Shown piece by piece: positions 4,039 through 32,000 of a DNA stretch of 32,000 nucleotides; positions within the stretch are counted from its first letter, which is position 1, and each line of letters starts with the position of its first letter. Made by a program: the position numbers and the translations under genes. The stretch lies in the NCBI GenBank assembly GCA_016700015.1, contig CP064995.1:510001-542000 (forward strand), read 5' to 3'. The notes beneath the pieces are model-generated. The model was not told the DNA's origin, ran no database searches, and saw only the letters and a program-made list of their open reading frames with translations. This DNA is from Candidatus Saccharimonadota bacterium (GTDB lineage Bacteria; Patescibacteriota; Saccharimonadia; Saccharimonadales; Saccharimonadaceae).

Positions 4039-4054
4039 TTTACTATAAATACTA

Positions 4055-4083
4055 TTGACACGTTTGTAAAAATTTGCCATAAT
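4055..4083 (+). promoter_or_regulatory. Near-consensus promoter for operon 4208-6266
   Basis: TTGACA (4055-4060), 17 nt, then TGcCATAAT (-10 at 4078-4083). It lies back-to-back with the minus-strand promoter, with the -35 boxes 16 bp apart. The leader is about 120 nt. Confidence 0.6.
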
Positions 4084-4207
4084 AGTTTTTAAGATCACAA
4101 GCTGCTGATCGGGAGGGCTCCCTAGGGAGTCTTTTCGAGTGCACGCCGTGCGATCATTGACAACCCACCGAAGAAGCAACGACTCGACCCCACGGAAAGG
4201 GGGAGCT

Positions 4208-5278: not shown

Positions 5279-5291
5279 AAAGAGGAATCCA

Positions 5292-6266: not shown

Positions 6267-6287
6267 TTCGCTACACGGTCGCAACCA

Positions 6288-6341
6288 GGGTCGTCCTCCG
6301 TTCGGATTCATCCGAGCGGGGGCGACCCCTCTTTTTATTTC
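6288..6341 (+). terminator. Intrinsic terminator of operon 4208-6266
   Basis: A long imperfect hairpin, GGGTCGTCCTCCGTTCGGA-TTCA-TCCGAGCGGGGGCGACCC, pairs with G-U wobbles on the plus-strand RNA. It is followed by CTCTTTTTATTT. Confidence 0.7.
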
Positions 6342-6348
6342 ACGGTAT

Positions 6349-6377
6349 TTGACATTTATATAATTTATTGCTATAAT
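6349..6377 (+). promoter_or_regulatory. Consensus promoter for gene 6413
   Basis: TTGACA (6349-6354), 17 nt, then TGcTATAAT (-10 at 6372-6377). A second TATAAT sits inside the spacer (6359-6364). Confidence 0.65.
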
Positions 6378-6412
6378 AATATATAGGGAAACTTCTAGCA
6401 AAGGAGTAGGGA

Positions 6413-6859
6413 ATGACCGTCGTCAAAATCGTCGTCAAGAGGTGCTGGCTAGACTGGGCGTGGGTAATCGCCACGTTCATCGGCTGGGAACTCAGTGTGC
6501 GCTACGCTGAACAGCTGCTTGGTGGCAGCAGTGTGGCCGGCTTCATCGCAGATGCCATACTGTACACCACCTGCGTGGTGCGTGGCGTGATCGCACTCGA
6601 TCGCACCATGTTTGCGATCGTCTACGAACCACGCCAGCTGACCGTCACGGTGACGGGCAGTAAGCTTGCCACCAAGGGCAGTAGGGTGAGCTACGAGTAC
6701 CACTTTGATGGTGGCGTCGTACGAGCACCAGCGATTTCGACCGATCGTGCCTACCCGGGTGACACCGTGTCATTCTGGTACCGGCCGATCGACTTGATCG
6801 AGGGCCTCAAGGTCACCATTTACGCCCGCGCCTGGGGACATGCAGTCACCAGTGGTTAA
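6413..6859 (+). CDS. Hypothetical membrane protein (2 TM plus DUF3592-like C-domain), GC-rich cassette
   Basis: AAAGGAG sits 7 nt upstream of the ATG. The C-domain SRVSYEYHFDGGVVRAPAISTDRAYPGDTVSFWYRPIDL matches my memory of the DUF3592 pattern (Y-x-Y-x-x-x-G ... G-D-x-V-x-h-x-Y-x-P). Confidence 0.7.
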   Translation: MTVVKIVVKRCWLDWAWVIATFIGWELSVRYAEQLLGGSSVAGFIADAILYTTCVVRGVIALDRTMFAIVYEPRQLTVTVTGSKLATKGSRVSYEYHFDGGVVRAPAISTDRAYPGDTVSFWYRPIDLIEGLKVTIYARAWGHAVTSG

Positions 6860-6872
6860 TACCAGGCTCTTT

Positions 6873-6919
6873 CGCCGCTCCAATCCCGCACATGTGGGCG
6901 AGGAGCGGCGCTTCATTTT
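6873..6919 (+). terminator. Intrinsic terminator of gene 6413-6859
   Basis: CGCCGCTCC (6873-6881) pairs with GGAGCGGCG (6902-6910), with inner pairing CCCGCACA/TGTGGGCG. It is followed by CTTCATTTT. Confidence 0.65.
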
Positions 6920-6923
6920 GCGC

Positions 6924-6929
6924 TATACT
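6924..6929 (+). promoter_or_regulatory. -10 box (TATACT) for the exonuclease gene, leaderless configuration
   Basis: TATACT ends 6 nt before the ATG at 6936. There is no SD. Confidence 0.4.
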
Positions 6930-6935
6930 AGCTAT

Positions 6936-7856
6936 ATGAAACTTTATTCGTGGAATGTTAATGGTATTAGGGCCGTGCTGAGCAAAGGCTTGCTGCAGCA
7001 ATTCATCGCCGAACATGACCCCGACATACTATGCCTACAAGAAACCAAAGCCGAGCGCGGGCAGTTTGAGATTGATTTTCCCCAGTACCACGAGCATTTT
7101 TTCAGCGCCGTCAAGAAAGGCTACTCTGGCACAGCAATTTTCTCCAAGGCAAAACCGCTCAGATATATCGATGGCTTCCCAGATGAAATTATCAAAAAAT
7201 TTGGTGTGACCGGCGATAGCTACGGCGACCCAAATGCCGAAGGGCGCGTGATAGCCGCTGAGTTTGCCGACTACTGGGTGGTAACCTGCTATACACCAAA
7301 CTCAAAAGGCGACTTGTCGCGGCTTAGCCTGCGCTATGACAAGTGGGACAGGGCAGTCCTGGCGTATTTGCAGCAGCTCGAAAACGGATCATTTCTCGCA
7401 AAACTTCAAGAAAGTGCTGGCTTAGATGAAGTGCAAGGCGCAGCCGAGAAACGGACTGAGCCGTATTTGACATACGGCTCAGGAGTATCGCAGACGGCAA
7501 CGCAGCAATTCGCTAAGCCAGTACTGTATTGTGGTGATATGAACGTGGCGCACCAAGAAATCGACCTAGCAAACCCAAAACCAAATGTCGGCAAGCACGG
7601 GTTTACCAACGAGGAGCGCGAACGCTTTCAAGATTACTTGGACGCCGGTTTCGTCGATACCTTTCGTGCCGCCCATCCCGACAAAACCGAAGCCTACACC
7701 TGGTGGACACACTGGGCCAATGCCCGGGCACGCAATGTTGGCTGGCGGATTGATTATTGGCTGGCCAGCAAAACTATTGCGCCAAAGGTCAAAAACCCAC
7801 AAATTCACGCCACCGTCATGGGTAGCGACCACTGCCCGGTGAGTATAGAGCTATGA
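6936..7856 (+). CDS. xth: Exodeoxyribonuclease III / AP endonuclease (ExoA/Xth family) with an internal ~44-aa insertion
   Basis: Trimmed to MKLYSWNVNGIRA. Other family motifs seen are ILCLQETK, GYSGTAIFSK, CGDMNVAHQEIDL, WRIDYWL and GSDHCPV. Residues ~150-193 (nt 7383-7514) have no counterpart in the canonical ~250-270-aa enzymes as I remember them. Confidence 0.9.
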   Translation: MKLYSWNVNGIRAVLSKGLLQQFIAEHDPDILCLQETKAERGQFEIDFPQYHEHFFSAVKKGYSGTAIFSKAKPLRYIDGFPDEIIKKFGVTGDSYGDPNAEGRVIAAEFADYWVVTCYTPNSKGDLSRLSLRYDKWDRAVLAYLQQLENGSFLAKLQESAGLDEVQGAAEKRTEPYLTYGSGVSQTATQQFAKPVLYCGDMNVAHQEIDLANPKPNVGKHGFTNEERERFQDYLDAGFVDTFRAAHPDKTEAYTWWTHWANARARNVGWRIDYWLASKTIAPKVKNPQIHATVMGSDHCPVSIEL

Positions 7857-16457: not shown

Positions 16458-16877
16458 ATGAAACACAGCAAGCAACAAGTCAGCGCCGTCCATTACGCGA
16501 TATTTATCACACTCATGACCGTGCTATTTTTCTCGACAGCGTTTTTTATATTTGCAATGAGCACTTATCCTCCATCCGCTCCTGGCCCACAAACATTCTG
16601 GGGTAACCCTATCGTTGTTGCTATTTGTACTTTACTCGCTTTTCCTTTTATTATGATGATGCTTTTGCCTTTATATGAATCAATTTTTTATCACAGATAC
16701 ACCGGGCAAAGTAGGGGGCAAGACTGGTTATACTCCGCGCTATTCATAAGTTTTATTGTTGATATTGTGTTCGTTTTCTCATACAACACTAGTAGCAGCT
16801 TGTTGCAGTCGATGATCGGGCTAGTGATCTTGCAGGCCATCACGCCGCTCGCAATAGCCTTCAGTCGCATGGACTAG
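16458..16877 (+). CDS. Hypothetical polytopic membrane protein (4 TM)
   Basis: Trimmed to MKHSKQQVS. Four hydrophobic segments. It starts 13 nt after the upstream stop. Confidence 0.6.
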   Translation: MKHSKQQVSAVHYAIFITLMTVLFFSTAFFIFAMSTYPPSAPGPQTFWGNPIVVAICTLLAFPFIMMMLLPLYESIFYHRYTGQSRGQDWLYSALFISFIVDIVFVFSYNTSSSLLQSMIGLVILQAITPLAIAFSRMD

Positions 16878-16982
16878 TGGGACCGGGGGAACACAATCGG
16901 GGTAACTGGGCGTCACTAGCAACGGTATCCAGGATCGGCCGGCCAGCGCCGGGCCATCTGACGCCTGAGCGCACACTCTACT

Positions 16983-17004
16983 CCCACCCCATACCAGGGG
17001 TGGG
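16983..17004 (+). terminator. GC hairpin (terminator-like) at the end of a GC-rich non-coding stretch
   Basis: CCCACCCC-ATACCA-GGGGTGGG. The downstream T-tract is poor (CTATTCAAT). Confidence 0.3.
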
Positions 17005-17017
17005 CTATTCAATAGTA

Positions 17018-17046
17018 TTGACTTTTATTATAATATGTGCTATAAT
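17018..17046 (+). promoter_or_regulatory. Consensus promoter for acidic-protein gene 17094
   Basis: TTGACT (17018-17023), 17 nt, then TGcTATAAT (-10 at 17041-17046). A second TATAAT lies in the spacer (17029-17034). Confidence 0.65.
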
Positions 17047-17093
17047 GAAATTCAGGAATAATTCCCACTACTGAAAAGAAAAGGGGATAGCAC

Positions 17094-17501
17094 ATGAAGG
17101 GTGGCCTTTACGACGGGCTGCGGATGGACGATGATGTCCTCCCGTCCTACGACTGGGATGACATTTTGGGTTGCGCCCACCCCACTTCGTGGGACGAGCT
17201 CGAGCGATTCGAGCGGGAGGACCGAGAATGGGAAGAGAGTGATGCGTGGGATGAGCTCAACGAGCGCTCCCGCAACCTGGACCCGTACAGCACCTACTTC
17301 GAGGTGATGGCCAGGTTGGACCCCGTCGGCGACGACGAAGACCCAGTGCGGGAGTACGAGCTGTACTGCCAGCTGTCCGAGCAGGCCAGCCCTGCGGTCA
17401 ACCCGCAGGTCGTCGCTGCCTGGCAGCGCCACCTGCGCCGCGGCCGCGCTCGCACTTCGCCCTACGCGCACGCCGCGTGGGTTGCCACCATGAGTGTCTA
17501 G
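17094..17501 (+). CDS. Highly acidic Trp-rich hypothetical protein with basic C-terminus (135 aa), GC-rich cassette
   Basis: AAGGGGA upstream of the ATG. About 30 Asp/Glu in the first ~95 residues by hand count. W-acidic motifs recur (YDWDD, SWDEL, EWEES, AWDEL). The C-terminus is RHLRRGRARTSPYAH. Confidence 0.65.
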   Translation: MKGGLYDGLRMDDDVLPSYDWDDILGCAHPTSWDELERFEREDREWEESDAWDELNERSRNLDPYSTYFEVMARLDPVGDDEDPVREYELYCQLSEQASPAVNPQVVAAWQRHLRRGRARTSPYAHAAWVATMSV

Positions 17502-17513
17502 TGTGGCACTACC

Positions 17514-17567
17514 ACACCCCGTCTTGCACCACCGCCAAGTGTGGTCGCGAGACGGGGTGTTCTCTGT
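17514..17567 (+). terminator. Intrinsic terminator of 17094-17501
   Basis: An 11-bp stem, ACACCCCGTCT (17514-17524) with AGACGGGGTGT (17550-17560), has additional inner pairing. It is followed by TCTCTGTT. Confidence 0.6.
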
Positions 17568-17573
17568 TATAAT
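17565..17573 (+). promoter_or_regulatory. Extended -10 promoter (TGtTATAAT) for gltX, leaderless configuration
   Basis: TATAAT (17568-17573) ends 7 nt before the ATG at 17581. There is no SD. Confidence 0.5.
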
Positions 17574-17580
17574 ACCTATC

Positions 17581-18993
17581 ATGATAGTTCGTACTCGTTT
17601 TGCCCCCAGCCCTACCGGTTTTCTCCATGTCGGTGGGATTCGTACCGCCTTGTTTGCATTCCTGGTGGCCAGACAAGCCGGAGGCACGTTCGTTCTTCGC
17701 TTTGAAGATACCGACAAAAAACGCGAGGTACCGGGCAGCGCCGAACACTTAATCTCTAGCCTCAAAGCCATCGGCATCGAATACGACGAAGGACCAGACA
17801 TTGGCGGGCCGTTCGCACCATACGTGCAGAGTCAGCGACTCGACCATTATAAGCAGTGGGCGCAAAAGCTTATTGATGCCGGGCGGGCGTATGCCGACCC
17901 GTACACTCCAGAGCAAATCCAACGGTTTCGCGAGGAAGCACAAGCGAACAAACGGGCATTTTTGTATCGTAACTATCGCCCCGAAAACCCACCTATTTGG
18001 GACGGAACTCGTCCGCTCCGTTTTAAATCGGAACCAAAAAGCTACCAGTACCACGACGAGGTAATGGGGGATATATCGACCAGTCCCGAAGTTGTCGACG
18101 ATATTATTCTCATAAAGTCAGATGGCTATCCTACCTATAATTTCGCTCATATCATCGACGATGCAGAGATGGAAATTACCCACGTCATCCGCGGCCAGGA
18201 ATTTATTTCCAGCATGCCTAACTACCTTGCGCTTTACGAAGCGCTTGGGCTGAGCCGCCCGCTATTTGCACATATGCCGCACATTATGAATGAGCAGGGG
18301 AACAAAAAGCTCGGCAAACGTGACGGCGCAAAAGACGTGCTCGACTATATCCGCGACGGCTATTTGCCCGAAACGATGATGAGTTTTATTGCCACTATGG
18401 GCTGGAACGATGGTACGGAGCAAGAAGTTTTTACAAAGCAGGAGCTTGTCGACAAATTTAGCCTCGAACGCGTCCAGCGCAGTGGTGCTCGTTTTGATGA
18501 AAAACGGCTGTTGTGGATGAACGGGCATTTTATCCGCGAACTTTCCCTCGACGAGCTGTATGACCGAATTGAATTTTTCTGGAGCGAGAGTGCCAAAAAG
18601 GCCCCCGAAAGCTACAAAAAACAAGTACTTGCACTTGCTCACGAACGGCTCAAAACGTTGAAAGATTTGCCAGCACTGACGAGCTACTTTTTCGAAGAGC
18701 CCACCCGCGACGACACGCTCATTACTGGCAATAAACAGCTCAAAAATCTCTCACAAACTGATATTAATCATCTGTTAGAAACAGTCAAATCCGAATTTGA
18801 GAAGATTGACGACTGGAACGGCGAAACAATTCAGCAGACGCTCAATCACTTGCTCGAACTTACCGGTCAAAAACCCGGCGTGCTGTTCAGCCTCATTCGC
18901 ATTGTTACCACGTGGGCGCCCTTTAGCCCACAGTTAAACGACACCCTAGCACTGCTTGGCAAACAAACAACGCTTGCCCGCCTGAGTAAATAG
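17581..18993 (+). CDS. gltX: Glutamate--tRNA ligase
   Basis: Trimmed to MIVRTRFAPSPTGFLHVGGIRTALF (HIGH-type motif). The KMSKS-equivalent is KLGKRDG. Length of 470 aa is typical. Confidence 0.93.
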   Translation: MIVRTRFAPSPTGFLHVGGIRTALFAFLVARQAGGTFVLRFEDTDKKREVPGSAEHLISSLKAIGIEYDEGPDIGGPFAPYVQSQRLDHYKQWAQKLIDAGRAYADPYTPEQIQRFREEAQANKRAFLYRNYRPENPPIWDGTRPLRFKSEPKSYQYHDEVMGDISTSPEVVDDIILIKSDGYPTYNFAHIIDDAEMEITHVIRGQEFISSMPNYLALYEALGLSRPLFAHMPHIMNEQGNKKLGKRDGAKDVLDYIRDGYLPETMMSFIATMGWNDGTEQEVFTKQELVDKFSLERVQRSGARFDEKRLLWMNGHFIRELSLDELYDRIEFFWSESAKKAPESYKKQVLALAHERLKTLKDLPALTSYFFEEPTRDDTLITGNKQLKNLSQTDINHLLETVKSEFEKIDDWNGETIQQTLNHLLELTGQKPGVLFSLIRIVTTWAPFSPQLNDTLALLGKQTTLARLSK

Positions 18994-22453: not shown

Positions 22454-22528
22454 GGTCGTATCGTCTAACGGTTAGGACATCAGGTTCTCATCCTGACAAT
22501 CCGGGTTCGATTCCCGGTACGATCACCA
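22454..22528 (+). tRNA. tRNA-Glu (anticodon CUC)
   Basis: Hand-folded. Acceptor GGTCGTA/TACGATC (one G-U); D arm GTCT-AACGGTTA-GGAC; anticodon stem TCAGG/CCTGA with loop TTCTCAT; T arm CCGGG-TTCGATT-CCCGG; encoded CCA. TATAAT at 22439-22444 lies 9 nt upstream. Confidence 0.9.
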
Positions 22529-22570: not shown

Positions 22571-22712
22571 AGCCCTTGCTAGAGAGCCAGGCCCGCAGGG
22601 TTCGATAAACCGACGAGGCGAGAGAAAAATCAGCTTGCTTACTTTTCCGAGCGAGGATGGACTATATCTTTTGATATTCCCGGTAAGTAAAGGTCGGACT
22701 TTTTTCATCTGT

Positions 22713-22800
22713 TAAAGATCAGATCTTTATTGTTCCTAGATCTTATTGCTCAGATTACCCTTACCCAGTATTTCAGTATGCATTTCGTTCCATTTCGATT
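22713..22800. repeat. Cluster of short palindromic and tandem direct repeats in the tRNA-Glu / T4SS spacer
   Basis: Palindrome TAAAGATC-A-GATCTTTA (22713-22729). Direct repeats AGATCTTTATTG (22721-22732) and AGATCTTATTG (22738-22748). Tandem TTACCC x2 (22755-22766). Tandem CATTTCGTTC/CATTTCGATT (22781-22800). Confidence 0.7.
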
Positions 22801-22812
22801 CAATAAAGTTTG

Positions 22813-22845
22813 CCAAAGTAAAACCCCTGCATTTTCATGCAGGGG
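22813..22845 (-). terminator. Intrinsic terminator of the minus-strand unit ending at 22851
   Basis: The minus strand reads CCCCTGCAT-GAAA-ATGCAGGGG (22845-22824), followed by TTTTACTTTGG. Confidence 0.75.
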
Positions 22846-22850
22846 GTGTG

Positions 22851-23564
22851 CTACGAGTCACTTTCGACTTCGTTTTCATCTTCATCTGGCGGAGCGCCTG
22901 TGCCAAGATCTTCACTGGGCGCCAGTGGCTCGACAGGGGCAACGGGCTCACTGGCCACTACAACCGCAGCAGGGAAGGACCCCAGATTCTCGAGCCGCTT
23001 CTCAATCCGTTCGAGCACAGCCAGCATTGCCACGTTTGCTTCAAACGCCAGGAGACCCAGCGTTTTTTGCTGCTGCTCAAGTGACGTTCGATACTGCTTG
23101 ATTTTGAGCAGATGCTCAACATTCATGACGTTGGGCAGCCGCTTTGACCCAACATACAGTGTCACAGTATTAAACAGGTAGTCAAGGGGACTGCGTGTGG
23201 GGGTATCGAGATTGACGTTTTCGATACTTTCCACGTCGTCCGGACTTCCCAGCACTAGGAGCAAGATGTTAGCTTTCTCCTGAATACACAGGTTGCCGTC
23301 GTGCGGGTCGCAGGTGATGTAGTTGTTGGCCCACTGCCAGTACTCACGGTACGACCATAGGACCGCAGGAAGAAAACCTCCGAGGTAGTACCAGTGAAAA
23401 CCTTGCCACAGCACCAAGACGACGAACACCATGGTGGTAGCAAGGATTACGGTCGACACCGACGAAAAGATCAGCTGCTTGACGCTCCGGCGCTCGCAAT
23501 AGGCGTTTGGAGGAGTGGACTTGTCGTGATCCCACTCCTCCAGTAGCTCAGTACTGGCCTTCAT
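22851..23564 (-). CDS. Hypothetical membrane protein (2 TM hairpin, possible bacterial PH-like domain, coiled segment, acidic Pro-rich tail)
   Basis: 237 aa. Helices are LIFSSVSTVILATTMVFVVLVLW and YYLGGFLPAVLWSY. The following ~90 aa resemble the YdbT/bPH_2 topology (weak, by eye). The tail is EPVAPVEPLAPSEDLGTGAPPDEDENEVESDS. Confidence 0.6.
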   Translation of the reverse strand: MKASTELLEEWDHDKSTPPNAYCERRSVKQLIFSSVSTVILATTMVFVVLVLWQGFHWYYLGGFLPAVLWSYREYWQWANNYITCDPHDGNLCIQEKANILLLVLGSPDDVESIENVNLDTPTRSPLDYLFNTVTLYVGSKRLPNVMNVEHLLKIKQYRTSLEQQQKTLGLLAFEANVAMLAVLERIEKRLENLGSFPAAVVVASEPVAPVEPLAPSEDLGTGAPPDEDENEVESDS

Positions 23565-23565
23565 G

Positions 23566-24000
23566 TTAGTGGATTACCTTGCCAACAGCATCAAGGATGT
23601 CCTGAAGCGAGCGGATGCCAGCGTCGACAAGATCGCGCAGCACACCGCTTGGCAGCCACTGGTAGTACGAACCTACCTCTACAAACAGTGCGATGGTGGC
23701 AAGTACCACCAGGAAGATCCCGATCGCGAAGCCAGCCGTCTTTTTGCCGCTATTCTTCATCATCAGGAACGACGCAAGAAGGAAGACGACGGTGACAATA
23801 ATGAGCTGCACGTTGCTCGATACCCAACCAGCGGGCAACGAACCGAGCATAAGCGTCGCCCCGGCGATACCAAGGAAAATCCCGAGCAGTTGCAGCACGA
23901 GGGGGCGCCCGCTTTTGTCGAGCAGAGCACGCCCGCCAAGTAGCGCCACAAGACCGACCGCTAGGCTCAAAATACCCTGAGATACATTTGCAAGGTCCAT
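23566..24000 (-). CDS. Hypothetical polytopic membrane protein (4 TM, 144 aa)
   Basis: Four hydrophobic helices. AAGGAA 5 nt upstream of the ATG. Its stop lies 1 nt from the downstream start. It has its own promoter-like TTAGAC-18-TAATAT upstream on the minus strand. Confidence 0.6.
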   Translation of the reverse strand: MDLANVSQGILSLAVGLVALLGGRALLDKSGRPLVLQLLGIFLGIAGATLMLGSLPAGWVSSNVQLIIVTVVFLLASFLMMKNSGKKTAGFAIGIFLVVLATIALFVEVGSYYQWLPSGVLRDLVDAGIRSLQDILDAVGKVIH

Positions 24001-24090
24001 GGCAGTTCCTTACGTAGTAGGGGAGATACCAGTACTACTATATTACCATTTAATTGTTATTTAGTCTAAATTATTTTAAACATAACCAAT

Positions 24091-24122
24091 GAAAAAGCCG
24101 AGGAGTTGGTTAACTCCTCGGC
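24091..24122 (-). terminator. Intrinsic terminator after the hydrolase gene (end of the T4SS-like operon)
   Basis: The minus strand reads GCCGAGGAGTT-AACC-AACTCCTCGGC, followed by TTTTTCATTGG. Confidence 0.75.
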
Positions 24123-24143: not shown

Positions 24144-25616
24144 CTACGGAACGAGTCCGAACTGCCGCATGAACGCTACTGGATCAACAAACGCACCATT
24201 CACTCGCACGTTGAAGTGCAGGTGAGGGCCTGTACTTGAGCCAGTGCTGCCCGAAAGGGCAATAACTTGGCCTGCAGACACTTGCTCGCCCGCACTGACC
24301 TTGACGACCGAGAGGTGAGCGTAGCCAGTGACAATGCCGCCATGGTCAATCGTGACGAAGTTGCCATACCCACCTGCGGGTCCTGCGAACAACACCTTGC
24401 CGCCGTGTGCCGCCTTCACTGGCGTTGCCATGCTTGCGGCGAAGTCCACGCCATCATGCAGTTTATACACACCTGTAATGGGGTGTACGCGCATGCCATA
24501 GGAGCTGGTGACACGAATCGAGTCGAGAGGCCAGCGCCAACCATTACTCAGACTGGCACTGGGAGCCCCGACCGAAACAGGCCGTGTAGCCGCCATAAAC
24601 GCAGACGTGGTGCTGCTCCATGAAACTGGCTGGACACTAATCGGCACGAGTGCACCACTCGCATCAATCATCTGCCCATTCCCAAGGTAGATCGCAACAT
24701 GAGTTGCCTTCAAATCTATCGGCAAGAGCTGCATTTGCGAGGACCAGTAGAGAAGGTCGCCGCGCTGCAACACCTCAAGCCATTCGCCGGAAGTACCGGT
24801 ACCTGGCTTGGCAATCGCCGCCCCGTACTGATACTGGGCACTGGCGCCAAGCGGCAGCGATATGCCCGCCATCTGATATGCCCACTGAGTAAATCCAGAG
24901 TTATCGAAGGGAGTTGTCGTTGCCCATTGGTTAGTCTTGCCTTGCTGACTGAGCGCAGCCTGAACCGCAATTTCGACCGCGGCGTTGATGCCTCCGACTA
25001 GGAATTGTGAGCAGTCGGTACTTGGAGCTTGCACACCTGGTGCGACTGCTGTGGGATCAGAAACAAATCCGGCCAGGATTTGCAAGACAGGAACTTCCCA
25101 CAAGTAAAACGTTTTCTCGTAGCTTGCTCGATTGGGTCGCTGAACCGCGATTGCTACTTCGATGAGCGGCATTGTGTCACGGTTGGCGACTTTTTCGAGC
25201 GCTTCGTAGAACTTATTTGTGGCATACACCGGGTCCAAGATCTGATCAGGCGTACCCCAGCCTTGGCTGGGCCGCTGCTGAAAGATCCCAAGACTATCGC
25301 GGTCACCCCATTTAAGGTTACGAATGTTCGATTCTTGTTTTGCCACCATCAGCGCAATCTGAATGTCGCGCACACTACGGTGCCTTGATACGCCCACATC
25401 ACGGATGATGGCGATGTTCTGTAGCTGCTCGGGCGAATTAAATCCCGGCACCGAAGGCACGGGGCCTCCGACTGCCGGCAGATAGTACGTTCCCTGTCCC
25501 TGCGTCGAGCAGTACTGCTGGGTATTCGAGAAAAACCCTGCAACACCAACAATGACCAGAACGAGCATCAAAATCGGCGTCAACAGGATAACTAGAAGTT
25601 TCTTATAGCCCTTCAT
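24144..25616 (-). CDS. Membrane-anchored three-domain cell-wall hydrolase: SLT/lysozyme-like, NlpC/P60-like, M23 (LytM) peptidase
   Basis: The N-terminal TM is followed by an SLT-like segment (ALMVAKQESNIRN...SLGIFQQRP, Glu95). The NlpC/P60-like segment is FDNSGFTQWAYQMAGISLP...GDLLYWS...THVAIYLGNGQMIDAS. The M23 domain shows HDGVDFAA, GYAHLS and GPHLHFNV. Confidence 0.85.
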   Translation of the reverse strand: MKGYKKLLVILLTPILMLVLVIVGVAGFFSNTQQYCSTQGQGTYYLPAVGGPVPSVPGFNSPEQLQNIAIIRDVGVSRHRSVRDIQIALMVAKQESNIRNLKWGDRDSLGIFQQRPSQGWGTPDQILDPVYATNKFYEALEKVANRDTMPLIEVAIAVQRPNRASYEKTFYLWEVPVLQILAGFVSDPTAVAPGVQAPSTDCSQFLVGGINAAVEIAVQAALSQQGKTNQWATTTPFDNSGFTQWAYQMAGISLPLGASAQYQYGAAIAKPGTGTSGEWLEVLQRGDLLYWSSQMQLLPIDLKATHVAIYLGNGQMIDASGALVPISVQPVSWSSTTSAFMAATRPVSVGAPSASLSNGWRWPLDSIRVTSSYGMRVHPITGVYKLHDGVDFAASMATPVKAAHGGKVLFAGPAGGYGNFVTIDHGGIVTGYAHLSVVKVSAGEQVSAGQVIALSGSTGSSTGPHLHFNVRVNGAFVDPVAFMRQFGLVP

Positions 25617-26149
25617 TGGCCACTCGACTTCTCGAAGCCAATAAACTTCCAGCCGTCACTGGTTTTTTCCCAGTACGACAAGCGTGTTACAGGGAAGGTA
25701 TTGACGATATCGCGGCCACGCTTGGTGCTCACAACAATCGTCGATTGCACCCAGACCGTTTTCTCGTCGAAATCGTGCACGAGCACAGAACTACTAAGCC
25801 CACGCTCTACTATCACAGTCACTGGCTCTGCTTGCCCAGCGTTCGACTCGTCATGTGTCGATGAGACGCCAAGCGAAGCGTATCCAGCAGGCGTACAGAG
25901 CTTTGTGAGTACCGCCGAGCGCTCAGCGCTCGGCGGAGAGTCGAGTACTTGCTCAAGTGCAAACACTTGGTCAACAATCATCTGCTTCTCGCGTAGAGCC
26001 AGCGTGTCCTCCTGGGTCGCCACGGCGGACGACACAGGAGGGGCTGGTGGCGGGGTACTTGATTCATTCGAGCTTGGCCGCAGGAAGAAGGTCAGAACGA
26101 CCACCACTAGCAACACACCTGCAAGAATCTGTCGCCAGTACCGTTTCAT
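25613..26149 (-). CDS. Membrane-anchored T4SS component candidate (VirB8/PrgL/TcpC-like: TM plus NTF2-like domain)
   Basis: The N-terminal TM (ILAGVLLVVVVLTFFL) and a Pro-rich linker precede a ~120-aa domain ending VTRLSYWEKTSDGWKFIGFE. ATGA and TGATG overlaps join it to both neighbours. The assignment rests on architecture and context only. Confidence 0.45.
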   Translation of the reverse strand: MKRYWRQILAGVLLVVVVLTFFLRPSSNESSTPPPAPPVSSAVATQEDTLALREKQMIVDQVFALEQVLDSPPSAERSAVLTKLCTPAGYASLGVSSTHDESNAGQAEPVTVIVERGLSSSVLVHDFDEKTVWVQSTIVVSTKRGRDIVNTFPVTRLSYWEKTSDGWKFIGFEKSSGQ

Positions 26150-27606
26150 CAGCGTTCTCCCTTCCTGTCCATGAGACTCTTGATTCTCGGGTCATCCATA
26201 ACCGGCCGACGGCGAAGCATACGCTCGGTCGCACCGCTTGATTGCACAAGCTTACGCATCATGGGCGGAATGTGCCACTGTAGATACAGTGGGTCACGTT
26301 CACGCGCCTTAATAATCGAGCAACCCTGGCCAAGACGTTGCGAAAGCCGAATTAAACTGTCGTCCAGCTCAAGCCCGCGCAACATATTCCAAGTTTCTTC
26401 GTTATTCGGCTGTTGGAAAATCACAAAGATATCCGTGCCGTTATAGATCTGCTCAGCATATCCCCGGAGGGTTGTACCAGGATCTCCGTACATCATGTTC
26501 GGGAGATACTGTGTTGAAGCTAATCCGATTTTGTGCGATGCCCGCGCCTTCGCGTTCTGGAACGCGTGAGCACGTGCCTGCAAAGGGTGTTGTCCTTCTT
26601 CTTGCACTTCTTCCATCACGTGAACGTGAGGAATCGCTGCAAGATCATAGTTGTTGAGCGCAGCGGTCATGGTATTGAAACGCTGCGTCTCAAAAAACGC
26701 AACTTCTGTCGGACTAAGTCCACTCATATCAAACAACGCTGCCGGCTCCGCGAGGTAATCACGAATCGACTGGCGCCCTGCGAACATGCGGCCAAACATA
26801 CCGTCGAAAATCAGAGTCAAATAGGTTGCCACCCTAAAGGCAGCCGCCTGAATCACCTGAACATCGTAGTTTGGTTCGGCCTCAAGAACCACGTCGAGCG
26901 GCTTATACAGTTCGCTCGTATCGGGATTGTCACGCTCAGTCCTATAGTGAGCAAGAAGGTGATCATCGACACGACGGTAAAATGCTTCGATATCTTCCAG
27001 GGAGATACTCCGTAGTACCCGTTCCATAAGTCGCGTGCTCAGCTGCATCGGCCTATCGCGTTTGATCACGAAGACAGCGATACGCATAGCCAGCACCTCG
27101 TCTGGGGTCAGTTGTTCATTCTTCACGAACTCTGCCCCCGTCATTGCAGTCTGCAAGATATCCCATTCGGTTCTTAAAGCAACCGGATCGAGCATCTCCA
27201 ACGACAGGTCCCTGAGAGCAATGACGTCGCAGGCCATACTCTCGACAATACCCGCCCATTCCGCAGTAGCCTCTTCGGGCTTGCGATTGTCAATATGCAT
27301 GCGCATGTCTTCAAGCTCACCAGCAGTGTCAATCGCTTGCTGAATCATTGTTGACATCGAGAACAGCTTCATCGCCGTCGTTTTACCGCTTTTCTTCAGA
27401 CCCGTAAAAACAATCTCGAGCGACTTTGTGAGGCCTGTTTTTTGGGCGAGATACGCATCGAAAGGAATGCGCCGATGCGTCCGAAGACACGTACCAAGCG
27501 GCATACCCGAAGGTTGCCACAGTGAAGGCACGATAAACGGTTGGTATGGCATAGTTGCATCCGCACCAAACGAGAATGACCGACCACGAGCCATAGTAAT
27601 CACCAT
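26149..27606 (-). CDS. virB4: VirB4/TrbE-type T4SS ATPase, C-terminal (NTPase) half
   Basis: Walker A FTGLKKSGKTTAM, a Walker B-like IPHVHVMEEV, then KIGLASTQYLPNM and a C-terminal LGQGCSIIKAR block, in the order expected for the VirB4 C-domain. The likely real start is the second ATG (MARGRSF, 27594). Confidence 0.75.
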   Translation of the reverse strand: MVITMARGRSFSFGADATMPYQPFIVPSLWQPSGMPLGTCLRTHRRIPFDAYLAQKTGLTKSLEIVFTGLKKSGKTTAMKLFSMSTMIQQAIDTAGELEDMRMHIDNRKPEEATAEWAGIVESMACDVIALRDLSLEMLDPVALRTEWDILQTAMTGAEFVKNEQLTPDEVLAMRIAVFVIKRDRPMQLSTRLMERVLRSISLEDIEAFYRRVDDHLLAHYRTERDNPDTSELYKPLDVVLEAEPNYDVQVIQAAAFRVATYLTLIFDGMFGRMFAGRQSIRDYLAEPAALFDMSGLSPTEVAFFETQRFNTMTAALNNYDLAAIPHVHVMEEVQEEGQHPLQARAHAFQNAKARASHKIGLASTQYLPNMMYGDPGTTLRGYAEQIYNGTDIFVIFQQPNNEETWNMLRGLELDDSLIRLSQRLGQGCSIIKARERDPLYLQWHIPPMMRKLVQSSGATERMLRRRPVMDDPRIKSLMDRKGER

Positions 27607-27708
27607 CCTTTGGGAAAGAGAGTTTTTGAATTGTTAAGTATCGTGAGGTGGTTATTCTTACCTCAGTATAAAAGCCGTCTTACGACCGCTCCTAAACTAA
27701 AGTAAGAG

Positions 27709-27744
27709 CTTCTTGGGAACGGGCGAGAGCCCATTCCCAAGAAG
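27709..27744 (-). promoter_or_regulatory. Strong hairpin in the spacer between the two VirB4 halves (attenuator or processing-site candidate)
   Basis: CTTCTTGGGAA (27709-27719) pairs with TTCCCAAGAAG (27734-27744), plus inner GGGC/GCCC pairing. It begins 7 nt after the upstream minus-strand stop. A second hairpin TGAGGT/ACCTCA lies at ~27641-27664. Confidence 0.5.
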
Positions 27745-27751
27745 TATTGTT

Positions 27752-29275
27752 TCACAGCAGGTTAATGCCCGTCGCGCTCCACAGTGCGCGCCATTGCTGG
27801 ACGGCACCCTTGACCGGCTTAGGACCCATACCTTTCCGCTCCATCATCTCTTCTACAATCACCATGGCGTCACGGTGTGCTTCCAGACTGGGCGACACCG
27901 TCACCCAAATCAGGTTGTAGTTTTGGAGATAGTAGTTGAGTTCTCCAAGCATACGGTCACGCGCCTCAAGACTTTCGTCACGAGCGATGGCTTCGTTCGT
28001 ACGGTACCGTCCACTCAGATACAGATCGGCTGCAGAGCGCCCAAGAGCGATGAAGCGTCCAAGAAACCGAGATTCGTTTCGCAAGTTAACAGCCTGTCCG
28101 ACTTTGGCGAATGTCCCATTGATAGGATGTCCGTCGTCGTCAAGTAGGCTGAAGCCGTCGAGGAAGTACGAGGGGTCAATGAGCTCTGGCTGCGCGGTTA
28201 CACGCGTGATGCCGATGTAGTTTCCATCGATCACCAGGTAGTCCGGGTAGCCTTCGATACGCCTCGTCATAAGATGACGACGGCTCGTGACTGTACCGGC
28301 CAGACCGGCTTGCTCGTCATCGTAATACGCCGGCATACCTACACTATCCCAGGTAGACCTGAAGAAACGTAAGGCTTCGCCGCCTGTTGCAATGTGAGCA
28401 TCATTAACGCCCCAACTTTGCAGGTCACGCTCGATACGACGGGCGGCGCGCATAATTGGGGAACGGCGAAGCGTACGCACATCTACATTATCGCCACTGC
28501 TCGTTAGTTTTTTGTTGCCCGTGGTCGTCAGTACGAGGGCCATAGTAACTTCACGCGGAAGTGTTTCATCCATATCCTGCAGCTCACCGACCAGGCGGTG
28601 CAGTGTCATGTGACGTCGCTGTCTAGGAGTCAGGTCCGCTTCGGCAATAACCGGTCTTCCATCTGCGTCCTTTACCATGCCTTCCGGCACGAAGACGTAG
28701 GGATTGACGGCCATACCAACATATTGACGCGTCAACCAAGGATTGGACGGACTCGTGCGGTAGACCCACGAAATTCCCAGTCCAGCACCCAGGTGCTCAA
28801 GACGCTTGGCAAATTCCTTGCTGCGCCGATATTGCTCTACAAGGCTCTTGGTTGTGGTACTTGCGCCGCTACCCAAAATGGGTACGGCATAAGCATCACT
28901 TGCTCCCTTGATGCGAAACAACCCTATACTCGCTCTCGACTCATCGATGATTTCGTCGACGATGAAGGGAATGGGTGGTGGTGTACCGCTCGCTTCATCC
29001 CACATCACATTCTTCTTCCGAAGTCTGAGATGAAGGTTAGCGATTCCGTCGTTTGGAATACGGTACACCCTGGTAGTGTTCGTACGGTACAGTAGTCCTA
29101 CCAGCATCAAGCTGAGCAGCCCACCGTAGGGCAAGTACCCGATTGTCATAGTAATCATGGCAATCGAGCACACCATGATTACCGTTAGCCAAATATCGGG
29201 CTCATCCATTTCGAAGTATCGCTGGCTCAACTGAGTAGGAGCCAGGATCTGCGGTGGCTTAGCACGCGTCCTCAT
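27752..29275 (-). CDS. VirB3-like TM hairpin fused to VirB4 N-terminal domain (no NTPase motifs)
   Basis: GAGGAGG upstream of the ATG. The N-terminal TM hairpin is IWLTVIMVCSIAMITMTIGYLPYGGLLSLMLVGLLY. It is followed by ~430 aa without any P-loop. It sits directly upstream of the VirB4 ATPase half. From memory it resembles actinobacterial split-VirB4 partners (SCO6880-type). Confidence 0.6.
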   Translation of the reverse strand: MRTRAKPPQILAPTQLSQRYFEMDEPDIWLTVIMVCSIAMITMTIGYLPYGGLLSLMLVGLLYRTNTTRVYRIPNDGIANLHLRLRKKNVMWDEASGTPPPIPFIVDEIIDESRASIGLFRIKGASDAYAVPILGSGASTTTKSLVEQYRRSKEFAKRLEHLGAGLGISWVYRTSPSNPWLTRQYVGMAVNPYVFVPEGMVKDADGRPVIAEADLTPRQRRHMTLHRLVGELQDMDETLPREVTMALVLTTTGNKKLTSSGDNVDVRTLRRSPIMRAARRIERDLQSWGVNDAHIATGGEALRFFRSTWDSVGMPAYYDDEQAGLAGTVTSRRHLMTRRIEGYPDYLVIDGNYIGITRVTAQPELIDPSYFLDGFSLLDDDGHPINGTFAKVGQAVNLRNESRFLGRFIALGRSAADLYLSGRYRTNEAIARDESLEARDRMLGELNYYLQNYNLIWVTVSPSLEAHRDAMVIVEEMMERKGMGPKPVKGAVQQWRALWSATGINLL

Positions 29276-29304
29276 AGTCAGCCCTCCTCAGTTGGGTTGT
29301 GAAG

Positions 29305-30519
29305 TCAAACTTCGTTGCGCTTTAGATACCCCTGAAGAGTTACCTCTTGCGGATCTCGTTCATGAGGGGCCCGCTGCGGCGGCTCGGCGTCTTCAGTAGC
29401 CACGTGGACAGCAGCCGCAACTTCAGGCTGACCAGCCACCACGGCACCGAATTCGACCGCCTTACCAGCGTTAGTGACCACTGGAGACGAGTCTGATTCT
29501 GGAGGCTTTTCAACTACGACCGTTTCCACGGTCACATCTTGGGACGTGTTGTCGCTTGGTGCTATCGGCTTAAGTGAGGCCTCTAGTGTGTCATGTGTGT
29601 GACTCTCCACCTCGGGGCGGTTTGTCACGTCGGAATCGGTGTGACCCTCAACCTTCGATCGGCTCTTTCCGCCTGCTGCGCGGCTCACGTACTCCTTGCT
29701 AAGAGCATATAGACCGTAAACCGCTGCAAACGTCAGAAGGCTCATAACAATCGCGAGAACAATCTTAAGGACGACATTGTCGACGCCGACTGAGATAATT
29801 TGTCCCATTCTTCGAAAGAAAGCGACGACAGTGTCACCTGCCAAGTAGGTAATCACCCACAAGGCAACTGCACCGCGCCAAATCTTTCTGCCGATTTCAC
29901 CAAAACTAAGCGTTCCGGCGGCACCCATGATGCCGGCCGCCATCATGATTCTTCCGACGGCAAACGCGATGACTAGGCCGACAATGGCAAGAAGAATGAA
30001 CAAGTAGACAAGATGGAACCCGAGCGCCACTGGCCCCGGGTCCAACTTTGGGAAGGGCATACCGCTCGCATCGGACGGGATCGAGCTGGGGCCAATCTTG
30101 TTAACCGCCTCTGTCAGTCCAACCTTCATGCTGAGCACATAGGTATTGATCTTCCACATCGGTACTGCGAAAGCTCCGGTGAGAAGTACGGCAATACCAA
30201 TTTGCGGAAGCTTGTCAAGGACACGCCCCCACAGGAAAATCGCGAGACATACGGCGCAGAAAAACACATTGAACGCGACATAGTTAGAAAGGGGCCAAAC
30301 TTGCTCAAACATTGTCTGAGCCCAGTCGGCGTGTCCCAGCAATTTTGCCGGCTCGGTAAGGGCGGTGCTGATGAAGTTGTTTAGCTTCGTACACCACTCC
30401 CACACACTTTCGGACCATCCTTCAGTAGGATCGAGAGGGTTTGCCGGGGTGAATGCCGTAAGCAATAGCACGACCGGAAGCACTCCAGCTATGCCTAGCT
30501 TGCGCCTTGACCATGCCAT
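29305..30519 (-). CDS. Polytopic membrane protein, VirB6/TrbL/PrgH-like candidate, with ~130-aa acidic C-terminal tail
   Basis: There are 6-7 hydrophobic helices after a signal-like N-terminus. AAGGAG upstream of the ATG. It lies between the small 2-TM protein and VirB3/4, as in T4SS operons. Confidence 0.55.
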   Translation of the reverse strand: MAWSRRKLGIAGVLPVVLLLTAFTPANPLDPTEGWSESVWEWCTKLNNFISTALTEPAKLLGHADWAQTMFEQVWPLSNYVAFNVFFCAVCLAIFLWGRVLDKLPQIGIAVLLTGAFAVPMWKINTYVLSMKVGLTEAVNKIGPSSIPSDASGMPFPKLDPGPVALGFHLVYLFILLAIVGLVIAFAVGRIMMAAGIMGAAGTLSFGEIGRKIWRGAVALWVITYLAGDTVVAFFRRMGQIISVGVDNVVLKIVLAIVMSLLTFAAVYGLYALSKEYVSRAAGGKSRSKVEGHTDSDVTNRPEVESHTHDTLEASLKPIAPSDNTSQDVTVETVVVEKPPESDSSPVVTNAGKAVEFGAVVAGQPEVAAAVHVATEDAEPPQRAPHERDPQEVTLQGYLKRNEV

Positions 30520-30535
30520 TTCAGTACTCCTTATC

Positions 30536-30580
30536 TATCAAAAAGTGGAGAGGGGCCGACGGCAAAACGCCGCCGACCCC
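30536..30580 (-). terminator. Intra-operon terminator/attenuator after the small 2-TM gene
   Basis: The minus-strand RNA reads GGGGUCGGCGGC-GUUUU-GCCGUCGGCCCC, a 12-bp stem with 2 G-U pairs, followed by UCUCCACUUUUUGAU. On the plus strand the same positions would be C-A mismatches. Confidence 0.6.
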
Positions 30581-30587
30581 GAACTTA

Positions 30588-30905
30588 CTAACAGCCCGCG
30601 CCAGGCAATAGGTTGGTGTTTGCCGCAAGCGCCGTCGCCACGACAATCATCAACAGCGAAATCCCAATCCCCTTCAAGAGAACAGGGATCTTCTTCGAGA
30701 AAGCCAAGGGGATACCGATGGCAAACGCGATGACGATGAGGATCTTGCCGACCGTCACCGACGTACCGAAGATCTCACCCGCGAGCAACTTGAAGGTTGG
30801 CTTCAGGCTATCCGCGACGCCGCACTGCGGCGTGATCACATCGGCCGGCAGTCCTGCCAGCTGTGTCTGCACATGGGCCGCAGCCCAAATCGTTGGAGAG
30901 AACAT
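30588..30905 (-). CDS. Small membrane protein with two C-terminal TM helices (VirB2/TrbC pilin-like or PrgF-like candidate)
   Basis: 105 aa, with AAAGGA upstream. The hydrophobic pair is GKILIVIAFAIGIPLAF and GIGISLLMIVVATALAA. Position and size fit a T4SS minor/major membrane subunit. I recognised no sequence motif. Confidence 0.45.
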   Translation of the reverse strand: MFSPTIWAAAHVQTQLAGLPADVITPQCGVADSLKPTFKLLAGEIFGTSVTVGKILIVIAFAIGIPLAFSKKIPVLLKGIGISLLMIVVATALAANTNLLPGAGC

Positions 30906-30920
30906 GGTTGTCCTTTCGGG

Positions 30921-32000
30921 TCAGTACTCGTCGACGACGAGTGGGGCGGGTTCTTTGAAATCGTCCGGGACAGTAATGCCCTGGGCGCGTGCTGACTCTT
31001 CGAAAATCGCCACAGCGATAGCCAAGAAGTCACGGGCAGTACCCTGGTCAATCTCATTCAGATCGACCGGTGCCACGTCTTCACGAGCGATATACGGATC
31101 AAACCGAACAGTCAGTCCAGTACCAGCCCACTTGGGGACAGCTGGCGCATTAGCGTCTTGGACCTGTGCTCGAGTGAGTTCTTCGAAATCAACCGGTGGG
31201 TCACTGGGTCGAACTCCTGTCACCACAACAATCGAACGACGAACCTTTTCGCGCGTCGAGATCTTCTCCCCTGGTAGTGCCGAAGCATCAGCAAGCCGAG
31301 AAGTGCCGTCATGGTGGTCTGTATTGTAGCCGGCCATGGTCTTGGTGAGCGTTTGTAGCGAGATAGGTGTCGGGGCCATGCCCACAAACACCAGTACGTC
31401 GCTAAAACGCGTCGCTGCCACCGGCACGCTGCCAAACTCGACATTGTCATTACCGTGATCCAGGACGATCATGCCGGTGCTTTGGTAGAGCCCGCGCACG
31501 AGCGCAGTGAACTGATCGGTATTGTAGTTACCGGCATCCACCACAACGCTATTGGCGTCTTCGCTGACAATCCCCAGCCCGTGAGGGGTAATGGGAATAT
31601 ACGGCGAAAGCGCACGATAGGTGTTGAGCGATCCGATATCCTTGTTCAACTTACCAACCGGCAACATCGTCCGGACATCAATCCCTGCCATGATGGCCAG
31701 AGTACTGGTAGCCGTGTTGAGCGTCGCCGGCATGATGACGCCATTGATACGCGTCTTCTCGGTCACCGATGATGCGACATAAAGTCCCACCGTCGACTTG
31801 CCACCCGACTTGATGTTACAAAACGACACCACGGGACGAATCCCAAAGTTCGTCAGCAACCGCAAGCGATTGGTAAACCGCTCAGTCTGCGCAGCCTCTT
31901 GCGCCACGCGTGCTTCCTCATAACGGGCAGCCCAGAACTTCTGGAACGTGGCAAGTTCAGCAGCATTCAGCTGACGCACCAGCGGCTTCTTGACACGCAA
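30921..32000 (-). CDS. P-loop NTPase, ParA/MinD-like (atypical Walker A), 5' end probably beyond the window
   Basis: The ORF is open to the window edge, and the first codon at 32000 is TTG, not a proven start. VVSFCNIKSGGKSTVGLYVAS resembles a deviant Walker A with signature Lys. A Walker B-like segment GMIVLDHGND is present. Confidence 0.5.
   Translation of the reverse strand: MRVKKPLVRQLNAAELATFQKFWAARYEEARVAQEAAQTERFTNRLRLLTNFGIRPVVSFCNIKSGGKSTVGLYVASSVTEKTRINGVIMPATLNTATSTLAIMAGIDVRTMLPVGKLNKDIGSLNTYRALSPYIPITPHGLGIVSEDANSVVVDAGNYNTDQFTALVRGLYQSTGMIVLDHGNDNVEFGSVPVAATRFSDVLVFVGMAPTPISLQTLTKTMAGYNTDHHDGTSRLADASALPGEKISTREKVRRSIVVVTGVRPSDPPVDFEELTRAQVQDANAPAVPKWAGTGLTVRFDPYIAREDVAPVDLNEIDQGTARDFLAIAVAIFEESARAQGITVPDDFKEPAPLVVDEY

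Follow-up and report, generated by a model that had tools for sequence, protein, structure and literature searches.

The window, by which we mean the whole 32-kb stretch of DNA analysed here (contig CP064995.1 of a Candidatus Saccharimonadota bacterium), carries nine co-oriented genes on its minus strand, which extend from position 22851 to beyond position 32000 and which we named g1 to g9 in 5'→3' order. The genes form three units bounded by hairpins, and in near-identical and identical contigs all nine were called together. Three terminator-like hairpins were predicted, after g4 (27744-27709, 16-bp stem), after g7 (24122-24097) and after g9 (22845-22824). Transmembrane prediction gave two segments in g2, five to six in g3 together with an acidic tail, an N-terminal hairpin in g4, one segment in g6 and four in g8. 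Based on the analyses described below, we regard the cluster as probably a chromosomally fixed, compact and very diverged apparatus of an environmental Saccharibacteria lineage that resembles a type IV secretion system (T4SS).

This locus had been described, from its sequence alone, as a T4SS-like operon of seven genes without relaxase, coupling protein or integrase. The minus-strand open reading frames (ORFs) of that original prediction are found at the coordinates it gave, and both the overlap of 4 nt at 25613-25616 and the sharing of base 26149 (TGATG, 26147-26151) follow from the ORF coordinates. The motifs GLKKSGKT, VHVMEE and ASTQ are present in the product of 26149-27606 as claimed, and the topologies assigned to g2, g3, g4 and g6 agree with transmembrane prediction. 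The number of genes, however, is nine and not seven, since g8 and g9 follow the hydrolase gene and are syntenic in close relatives. The first gene, g1, is cut by the end of the window, which keeps only the C-terminal 359 aa of a protein that is 514 aa in full length, as read from a 100%-identical contig (L002). The clean terminator said to end the operon next to a tRNA-Glu locus exists at 24122-24097, but it is one of the three; the tRNA-Glu gene (22454-22528, on the strand opposite to the operon) begins only about 0.3 kb past the last terminator, whereas its distance from the terminator that was meant is 1.6 kb.

VirB4 similarity across g4 and g5

g5 (26149-27594, minus strand) encodes a soluble 481-aa ATPase, the start of which is probably at 27594 (MARGRS...), as in all homologues; the alternative start at 27606 would give 485 aa. 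An exhaustive profile search gathered its family as 304 clusters at 50% identity, nearly all of them 460-510 aa long. The best PDB match of the family profile was the C-terminal domain of Thermoanaerobacter VirB4 (4ag5, E 1.1e-11), aligned in two collinear stretches that bracket a helical insertion at residues 147-270, and hhalign aligned the family to residues 424-789 of the VirB4 encoded by the Xylanimonas plasmid pXCEL01. We built an AlphaFold2 (AF2) model of g5 on a 72-sequence alignment, with a predicted local distance difference test (pLDDT) score of 91.2, and a Foldseek search of the PDB with this model returned 4ag5 and 4ag6 at the top (E 1.9e-11, TM-score 0.69-0.70), followed by DndH-C, HerA and TrwB/Cagβ. 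The protein carries the motifs GLKKSGKT (Walker A) and HVHVMEE (Walker B), R355 and an STQ motif. K75 of Walker A, E333 of Walker B and R355 are invariant in the 72-member alignment, and Q366 of the STQ motif is invariant in a closer alignment of 21 sequences. Since 4ag5/4ag6 is the top match of both the profile and the AF2 model, there is a strong case for g5 as a free-standing VirB4 C-terminal domain in which all catalytic residues are intact. Pfam AAA_10 was touched by only two of the 72 family members, and weakly. The homologue search returned only four to six close relatives, the alignment query included, which were named as Ca. Saccharimonas or Saccharibacteria metagenome-assembled genomes, and the locus search with the close alignment gave two related loci each in the genome and metagenome collections.

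The structures that came after VirB4 in the Foldseek search were the DndH/DptH C-terminal domain and HerA defence complexes, and the family profile also matched DptH in the PDB (E 2.4e-4), as would be expected if the cluster had a HerA/DptH-type ATPase at its core and served anti-phage defence or another non-secretory purpose. We consider this hardly probable at all. VirB4 is the best match both by sequence and by structure, and PADLOC made no defence assignment for any of the nine proteins, with only a weak local P-loop match of g5 (VakA, E 8.5e-4). Moreover, eight of the nine products are predicted to be membrane-anchored or exported, one of them a peptidoglycan hydrolase, and no nuclease, SIR2 or similar partner is encoded among them. 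A type VII secretion system was also considered and rejected.

g4 (27752-29275, minus strand) encodes a 507-aa protein in which a single hydrophobic hairpin at the N-terminus precedes about 430 aa of cytoplasmic sequence. When we compared its family with a reference alignment of the VirB4 N-terminal domain, made of 10 actinobacterial plasmid sequences, hhalign aligned 149 columns with a score of 37.5 (P 8.9e-4), so that g4 residues 338-491 correspond to VirB4 residues 244-399. The controls scored 14-16 for reversed profiles, at most 20.7 for 25 block shuffles and 16-18 for unrelated alignments. In addition, the conserved C-terminal motif of g4, ALWSATxGINLL, resembles ELWWAMQPGIS at the same position of the pXCEL01 VirB4. 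The comparison lends moderate support to g4 carrying a VirB4 N-terminal domain. The reference alignment ends in a tail (columns 414-451) that pairs with the initial 45 columns of the g5 family, and g5 residue 13 aligns with VirB4 residue 424. By extrapolation, the end of g4 (residue 507) would fall at about VirB4 residue 415 and the start of g5 at about residue 416. Because these VirB4 residues are adjacent, the alignments indicate that g4 and g5 arose by a clean fission of one VirB4 into an N-domain gene and an ATPase gene. The profile match to 4ag5, the top Foldseek match, the hhalign match of the N-domain and the seamless fission point thus speak for the T4SS-like core around VirB4 that had been predicted, with 26149-27606 proving similar to VirB4 in the profile, Foldseek and hhalign searches and 27752-29275 in the hhalign search.

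We also considered g4 as a degenerate paralogue of g5 and rejected this. At one syntenic locus (L012, 2709-4191), the g4 equivalent consists of two genes, one for a 106-aa transmembrane hairpin and the other for a soluble protein of 391 aa. Either a frameshift or a second round of fission accounts for this, and the result resembles the arrangement of PrgI and TrsD in canonical systems.

Between the two VirB4 halves lies the only sizeable intergenic gap of the operon (27595-27751, minus strand). It has a minimum free energy of -66.3 kcal/mol (z = -7.3) and contains two strong hairpins, the 16-bp stem after g4 and a second at about 27707-27656, as well as a TTAACAAT box (27637-27630) that precedes the g5 ATG by 43 nt. 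In nine of nine loci (L001, L006-L010, L012, L013 and L015), g4 is followed by a hairpin-containing gap of 100-280 nt, and in five of these nine the strict motif TTAACAAY occurs no more than 75 nt upstream of g5, against a background of 0.032 per kb. The gap is probably an attenuator or terminator together with an internal promoter or regulator site, and its hairpins and TTAACAAY box would give the two VirB4 halves different expression levels. CTTAACA-like boxes similar to this motif were also observed upstream of g1.

Partner proteins and comparison with described systems

g7 (24144-25616, minus strand) encodes an exported 490-aa peptidoglycan hydrolase, which takes the VirB1-type role. Its three modules are, in order, an N-terminal domain with a QESN...GIFQQ motif, NlpC/P60 and M23. 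It is the only operon product recognised by Pfam or NCBIfam (M23, E 4.8e-32; NlpC/P60, E 1.3e-13), and single-sequence searches of the PDB likewise recognised none of the other eight products. The proposed SLT/P60/M23 architecture is therefore confirmed by Pfam for P60 and M23, whereas the N-terminal 'SLT' module has no Pfam or NCBIfam match; this module is conserved and is common to actinobacterial T4SS hydrolases. In a plasmid search, the best full-length matches of g7 were all hydrolases of actinobacterial T4SS clusters, whose further products are TcpC, a VirB4 of 856 aa, a polytopic protein and an FtsK-like ATPase. BLASTP against the pXCEL01 hydrolase gave 43% identity for M23 (E 6e-24) and 29% identity over 300 aa for the N-terminal module plus P60 (E 5e-20), with the module order permuted.

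The actinobacterial plasmid T4SSs (Xylanimonas pXCEL01, Rhodococcus pBD2 and Arthrobacter pAL1; MPF_FATA-like) resemble the operon in that the three hydrolase modules are homologous, the plasmid VirB4 is collinear with g4 plus g5, and the hydrolase has as neighbours a polytopic protein and another, small one of about 200 aa. While the plasmids encode a single 856-aa VirB4 (Pfam AAA_10), TcpC (PF12642), a 743-aa membrane protein and the FtsK-like ATPase, the operon has a split VirB4, no TcpC match, no FtsK or type IV coupling protein (T4CP), a permuted hydrolase and a ParA-like gene, and it is chromosomal and vertically conserved. The link between g7 and these plasmid systems hints at gene flow from host to parasite. 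Among the syntenic loci the domain content of the hydrolase differs, comprising M23+P60, VanY, CHAP+P60, VldE or Exo_endo_phos+M23. The last of these was observed at L008 (10493-12955), where an 820-aa hydrolase has an Exo_endo_phos (nuclease/phosphatase) domain fused to M23.

g1 (30921-32000, minus strand, running past the window end) is, by its family profile, motifs and the Pfam matches of family members, a ParA/MinD-like ATPase of the SIMIBI class. The family profile matched the structures of Soj/ParA, FlhG(FleN) and MinD, with the best E-value (1.8e-6) to Soj and longer alignments to FlhG and MinD, which agrees with the ParA-like call made earlier for this gene. Pfam AAA_31 or CbiA was found in five of eight family members, and the family keeps a deviant Walker A motif, NxKGGxSKT, together with a DxGN motif. 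ParA-type ATPases are also encoded with other trans-envelope machines, namely VirC1 with the Agrobacterium T4SS, TadZ/CpaE with Tad pili and FlhG with flagella, which they presumably position or license. Unlike these partners, g1 has a variable N-terminal region of considerable length and, in this lineage, a transmembrane hairpin of its own (aa 54-94 of the full-length protein); in the window copy the Walker A loop is shortened.

g2 (30588-30905, minus strand) encodes a small protein of 105 aa with a leader-like N-terminus, transmembrane segments at residues 41-59 and 75-93, and a basic loop. Two of seven positional orthologues matched Pfam T4SS_pilin (PF18895) below threshold (E 2.2e-4 and 1.2e-3), and TrbC/VirB2 (PF04956) was matched at E 2.2e-3, likewise below threshold. 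Based on its topology and these orthologue matches, g2 is probably a VirB2-like pilin. In g2 and its orthologues, one Cys is conserved just after the leader (P..C) and another at the extreme C-terminus (PGAC), and a disulfide bond from end to end could mimic the head-to-tail cyclisation of VirB2/TrbC pilins. g3 (29305-30519, minus strand) encodes a 404-aa polytopic protein whose C-terminal acidic tail spans about 135 aa and whose family is present in all syntenic loci. g6 (25613-26149, minus strand) encodes a 178-aa bitopic protein in which a linker rich in Pro, Ser and Thr connects an N-terminal transmembrane segment with an alpha+beta domain some 120 aa long. By position and topology only, g3 is a VirB6-like candidate and g6 a VirB8-like/NTF2 candidate.

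Several results weigh against the T4SS-like reading. The window copy of g5 had no Pfam, NCBIfam or PDB match in single-sequence searches, and g4 had no Pfam or PDB sequence similarity, either as a single sequence or as a family profile. Between g4 and the VirB4 N-terminal domain the match is of modest strength (P about 1e-3, HHalign probability 23%) and extends over only some 150 residues at the C-terminal end; it was obtained with the 10-sequence alignment, whereas hhalign of g4 against the single pXCEL01 VirB4 gave nothing. The g4 hairpin showed no hhalign similarity to the small proteins upstream of VirB4, so that in the proposed fusion of a VirB3-like hairpin to the VirB4 N-domain the second part is supported by hhalign and the first describes a topology only. 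No Pfam or NCBIfam match was found for the window copy of g2, and no PDB match with its family profile. For g3, neither Pfam, the PDB-profile search nor hhalign gave any similarity to VirB6/TrbL or to the 743-aa pXCEL01 membrane protein. Likewise, g6 had no hhalign similarity to TcpC or to the 205-aa protein of pXCEL01. Its PDB-profile match, to a designed cortisol-binding protein that we take to be built on the NTF2 scaffold, was insignificant (E 0.37). The VirB6 and NTF2/VirB8 labels of the original prediction consequently found no backing in sequence comparison. The Walker A motif of g1 in the window, NIKSGGKST (31300-31330), is one residue shorter than the family consensus, as it is at L008, and in this lineage g1 may be a non-catalytic scaffold that does not hydrolyse ATP. 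Lastly, a 920-aa DUF87/TrwB_AAD_bind protein of T4CP-like type, with TrwB as its best, though weak, PDB match, is encoded 3 kb from the operon at L007 (14594-17356, minus strand). We liken it to SEML1_0293, a T4CP-like ATPase of Southlakia epibionticum. Given this gene near the L007 operon, a distal coupling protein is possible for the genome of the window as well. Set against these points, the VirB4 halves, the ParA-like protein and the hydrolase are the parts for which the T4SS-like reading has support.

Chromosomal T4SSs that lack a relaxase and are akin to MPF_FATA have been described as near-universal in Patescibacteria (PMC12102498), and the T4SS of S. epibionticum is essential for its epibiotic growth (PMC10633639; reviewed in PMC12857230). 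The locus of this species, SEML1_0006-0019, encodes a 612-aa VirB4, a 293-aa TrsD-like protein, a 300-aa PrgI (PF12666), proteins of 998, 1088 and 1113 aa, and six PF18895 pilins. The operon could be a diverged version of this single canonical system, in which case g4 would be PrgI fused to TrsD and g5 would be VirB4. Both are chromosomal and VirB4-centred, belong to monoderm epibionts and come without a relaxase or an adjacent coupling protein, and in both a VirB4-N-like protein is encoded immediately upstream of the ATPase, along with a VirB2-like pilin (a probable one in the operon), a polytopic membrane protein and downstream hydrolases. The published arrangement indeed has TrsD and PrgI beside VirB4, hydrolases downstream and VirB2-like pilins nearby (PMC12102498), and the separate hairpin and soluble genes at L012 point the same way. 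Nonetheless, we hold this reading to be unlikely, since gene sizes and gene content differ strongly between the two. The canonical locus has a 612-aa VirB4 with its own N-region in addition to TrsD, whereas the ATPase of the operon is a bare C-terminal domain, as expected from full fission, and the fission maps seamlessly onto full-length actinobacterial VirB4. The operon has no PrgI (PF12666) match, encodes no protein in the range of 1000 aa, and shows one sub-threshold pilin where the canonical locus has an array of six (PF18895). In addition, it includes a ParA/MinD-like ATPase that is membrane-anchored and a hypervariable tail of two genes. While the canonical components are detectable by Pfam and KEGG, the operon is invisible to Pfam and NCBIfam except for its hydrolase. 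Furthermore, in the structure-based annotation table of S. epibionticum ML1, a VirB4-type (e4ag6) domain is listed in SEML1_0008 only. A VirB4-N-related protein directly upstream of a VirB4 ATPase is also known from TrsD-TrsE of pGO1/pSK41 (MPF_FATA subclass; PMC12102498). There, TrsE is a full-length VirB4 and TrsD, which we compared by its description, is an extra copy, whereas g4 and g5 are complementary halves.

A bolder reading is also possible, which we hold to be somewhat less likely than not. The operon may represent a second, separate family of VirB4 machines in environmental Saccharimonadia, domesticated from the conjugation apparatus of an actinobacterial host. Such a family would be distinguished by a split VirB4, a ParA-like positioner, a single pilin that can be bridged by a disulfide and an exchanged cassette that sets specificity, and it would have been missed by standard surveys with hidden Markov models (HMMs). 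No paper describing a split VirB4 or a second T4SS in this phylum was found in our literature search. If such a second, smaller VirB4 machine exists, HMM censuses under-count T4SS-like systems in the candidate phyla radiation, with some 300 clusters unseen by Pfam, NCBIfam and possibly CONJscan. The operon would then offer a minimal nine-gene monoderm system for finding the indispensable parts and a natural case of VirB4 fission, with the membrane-docking and the ATPase half set apart from each other. Saccharibacteria are dependent on host cells, and the only species among them that is genetically tractable requires its T4SS for epibiotic growth.

Chromosomal setting and proposed function

Gene order is kept in nine independent loci, in which g5 identity falls to about 20% (about 20-30% for the proteins), so that the conservation looked for across relatives is deep. 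The shared order starts with the ParA-like gene, a small transmembrane protein and the polytopic protein, continues with a product of about 500-590 aa, the ATPase and one of about 180-210 aa, and closes with a hydrolase of variable domains and variable small membrane proteins. The neighbours of the syntenic loci are housekeeping genes, namely secE-nusG-rplK/rplA, a class I (Tyr/Trp-type) aminoacyl-tRNA synthetase and G6PD, and PAS-kinase or MMPL neighbours are common to several loci. For all nine genes, the ratio of nonsynonymous to synonymous substitution rates (dN/dS) against UBA669 was 0.025-0.16, which shows all of them to be under purifying selection. Because of this synteny, the housekeeping neighbours and the low dN/dS, we infer that the cluster is a fixed chromosomal system and not a mobile element. 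As to individual loci, the whole operon at L010 (3832-14800) and at L011 sits between rplK and rplA, and at L015 (16729-17630) it is close to secE-nusG, which places it inside one of the best conserved gene strings of bacteria.

The components of the cluster are those of monoderm conjugative T4SSs, and the closest relatives of its hydrolase are on actinobacterial plasmids. The cluster also abuts tRNA-Glu, and a strain-variable island begins at 22782. These features would suit the transfer module, or a decaying remnant, of an integrated conjugative element (ICE) beside the tRNA gene, an origin that we consider very improbable. No relaxase domain was found in the operon, in the 20 other ORFs of the window by Pfam (several of which have no Pfam match) or in the ORFs checked up to 6.8 kb upstream. 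A T4CP of the VirD4/TcpA/FtsK type was absent from the window and the 6.8 kb upstream, and integrase and replication genes were absent from 22 kb on one side and 6.8 kb on the other. The predicted lack of relaxase, coupling protein and integrase was thereby confirmed and extended to the full 32-kb window plus 6.8 kb upstream, which we inspected through L002 with no such gene found. The tRNA-Glu 3' end, searched for with as many as two mismatches, did not occur a second time in the window, L001, L002, L003 or L005, so that the ICE flanked by att repeats that had been named as the counter-case was not seen within the range covered; nor does any of the other loci have a tRNA gene beside the operon. 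The GC content of the operon (0.52-0.56) equals that of the remaining window and flanks, and neither the purifying selection on all genes nor synteny in housekeeping neighbourhoods over deep divergence favours a mobile origin. Finally, tblastn of g5, g4 and g1 gave no match in 72,556 plasmids.

The absence of a relaxase and a T4CP argues against conjugation. A host-directed rather than conjugative role is already the published view for Patescibacteria T4SSs (PMC10633639, PMC12102498) and is not new here. The most likely role of the operon is delivery of proteins to, or exchange of macromolecules with, an actinobacterial host. In the mechanism that we propose, g4 would anchor the g5 hexamer and dock it at the membrane, and g3, possibly with g6, would form the membrane channel and the wall-spanning scaffold. 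g7 would open the peptidoglycan, either that of the epibiont or that of the host, g2 would build a short pilus or conduit, and the membrane-anchored ParA-like g1 would position or license assembly. The machine would thus move proteins or other macromolecules, and not plasmid DNA, between the epibiont and its actinobacterial host.

The main functional alternative is import of DNA or nutrients, that is, a Ced/ComB-like machine that pulls host nucleic acid into the epibiont. The missing relaxase and T4CP and the inability of Saccharibacteria to make nucleotides would suit it, and VirB4-based importers are known from archaea (Ced) and Helicobacter (ComB) (PMC12102498, PMC12857230); the Exo_endo_phos nuclease/phosphatase domain fused to the L008 hydrolase would also fit. 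We nevertheless rate it as improbable. Competence in Saccharibacteria has been assigned to type IV pili and ComEC, with comEC dispensable for growth, according to PMC10633639 as related in PMC12857230, and no sequence feature of the operon indicates the direction of transport.

Terminal cassette and remaining window

The last two genes follow the terminator-like hairpin after g7 (24097-24122, minus strand), which has an 11-bp stem followed by TTTTTCATTG. g8 (23566-24000, minus strand) encodes a 144-aa protein with four predicted transmembrane segments, and g9 (22851-23564, minus strand) a 237-aa protein with an N-terminal transmembrane segment and an acidic C-terminal region. g8 had a weak, sub-threshold match to Pfam TcpE (E 0.0096; 16.8 bits against a cutoff of 29.9), and g9 had no Pfam match. 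Between the window and the strain represented by L001, g1-g7 are 98-100% identical, whereas g8-g9 (23000-24100) are only 66-76% identical, with a dS of about 1, and identity returns to 96% at 22800-23000. At the protein level, g8 has 74% identity to its L001 counterpart, compared with at least 99% for g2-g7, and g9 has 72% identity with a dS of about 0.9 and a dN/dS of 0.21. At the g7 terminator hairpin, the identity of the two strains drops from about 99% to about 70%. From this pattern, we read g8 and g9 as a hypervariable cassette that is swapped by recombination and starts at the terminator behind the hydrolase gene. TATAAT-like boxes lie upstream of g8 in several loci. Such a strain-variable cassette may serve as a specificity or exclusion-type module and, speculatively, recalls the exclusion genes that we take to follow the hydrolase in ICEBs1.

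On the tRNA side of the operon, the homology between the window and L001, a strain of 95% identity, stops at 22782, just past g9. In place of the tRNA-Glu and a response regulator of the window, L001 carries DUF5677 and SEC-C-motif genes (16500-18259), and from this comparison the segment 22529-22782 is a strain-variable island. Apart from the tRNA, the only Rfam match in the region was a sub-threshold one to group I intron, which lies in the spacer between g9 and tRNA-Glu (22638-22849, minus strand; 21 bits against a gathering threshold of 50, E 0.075) and is most likely due to chance.

The 6.8 kb past the window end, read from L002, encode a 170-aa protein, an MMPL transporter, an M50-like protein and a PAS histidine kinase. 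Elsewhere in the window, the ORFs that could be annotated have housekeeping or envelope-related functions and encode GluRS, a two-component system, a sortase, a PEGA protein, an amino-acid-kinase-family protein, a diacylglycerol kinase, a HAD protein and an Exo_endo_phos protein. The most GC-rich stretch of the window (3000-7000, 0.58-0.61) has long overlapping ORFs on both strands (for example 4139-5278, 5022-6266 and 4757-5482), none of which has a Pfam match. The Exo_endo_phos gene (6840-7856) is a separate gene of 338 aa, 16 kb from the operon hydrolase.

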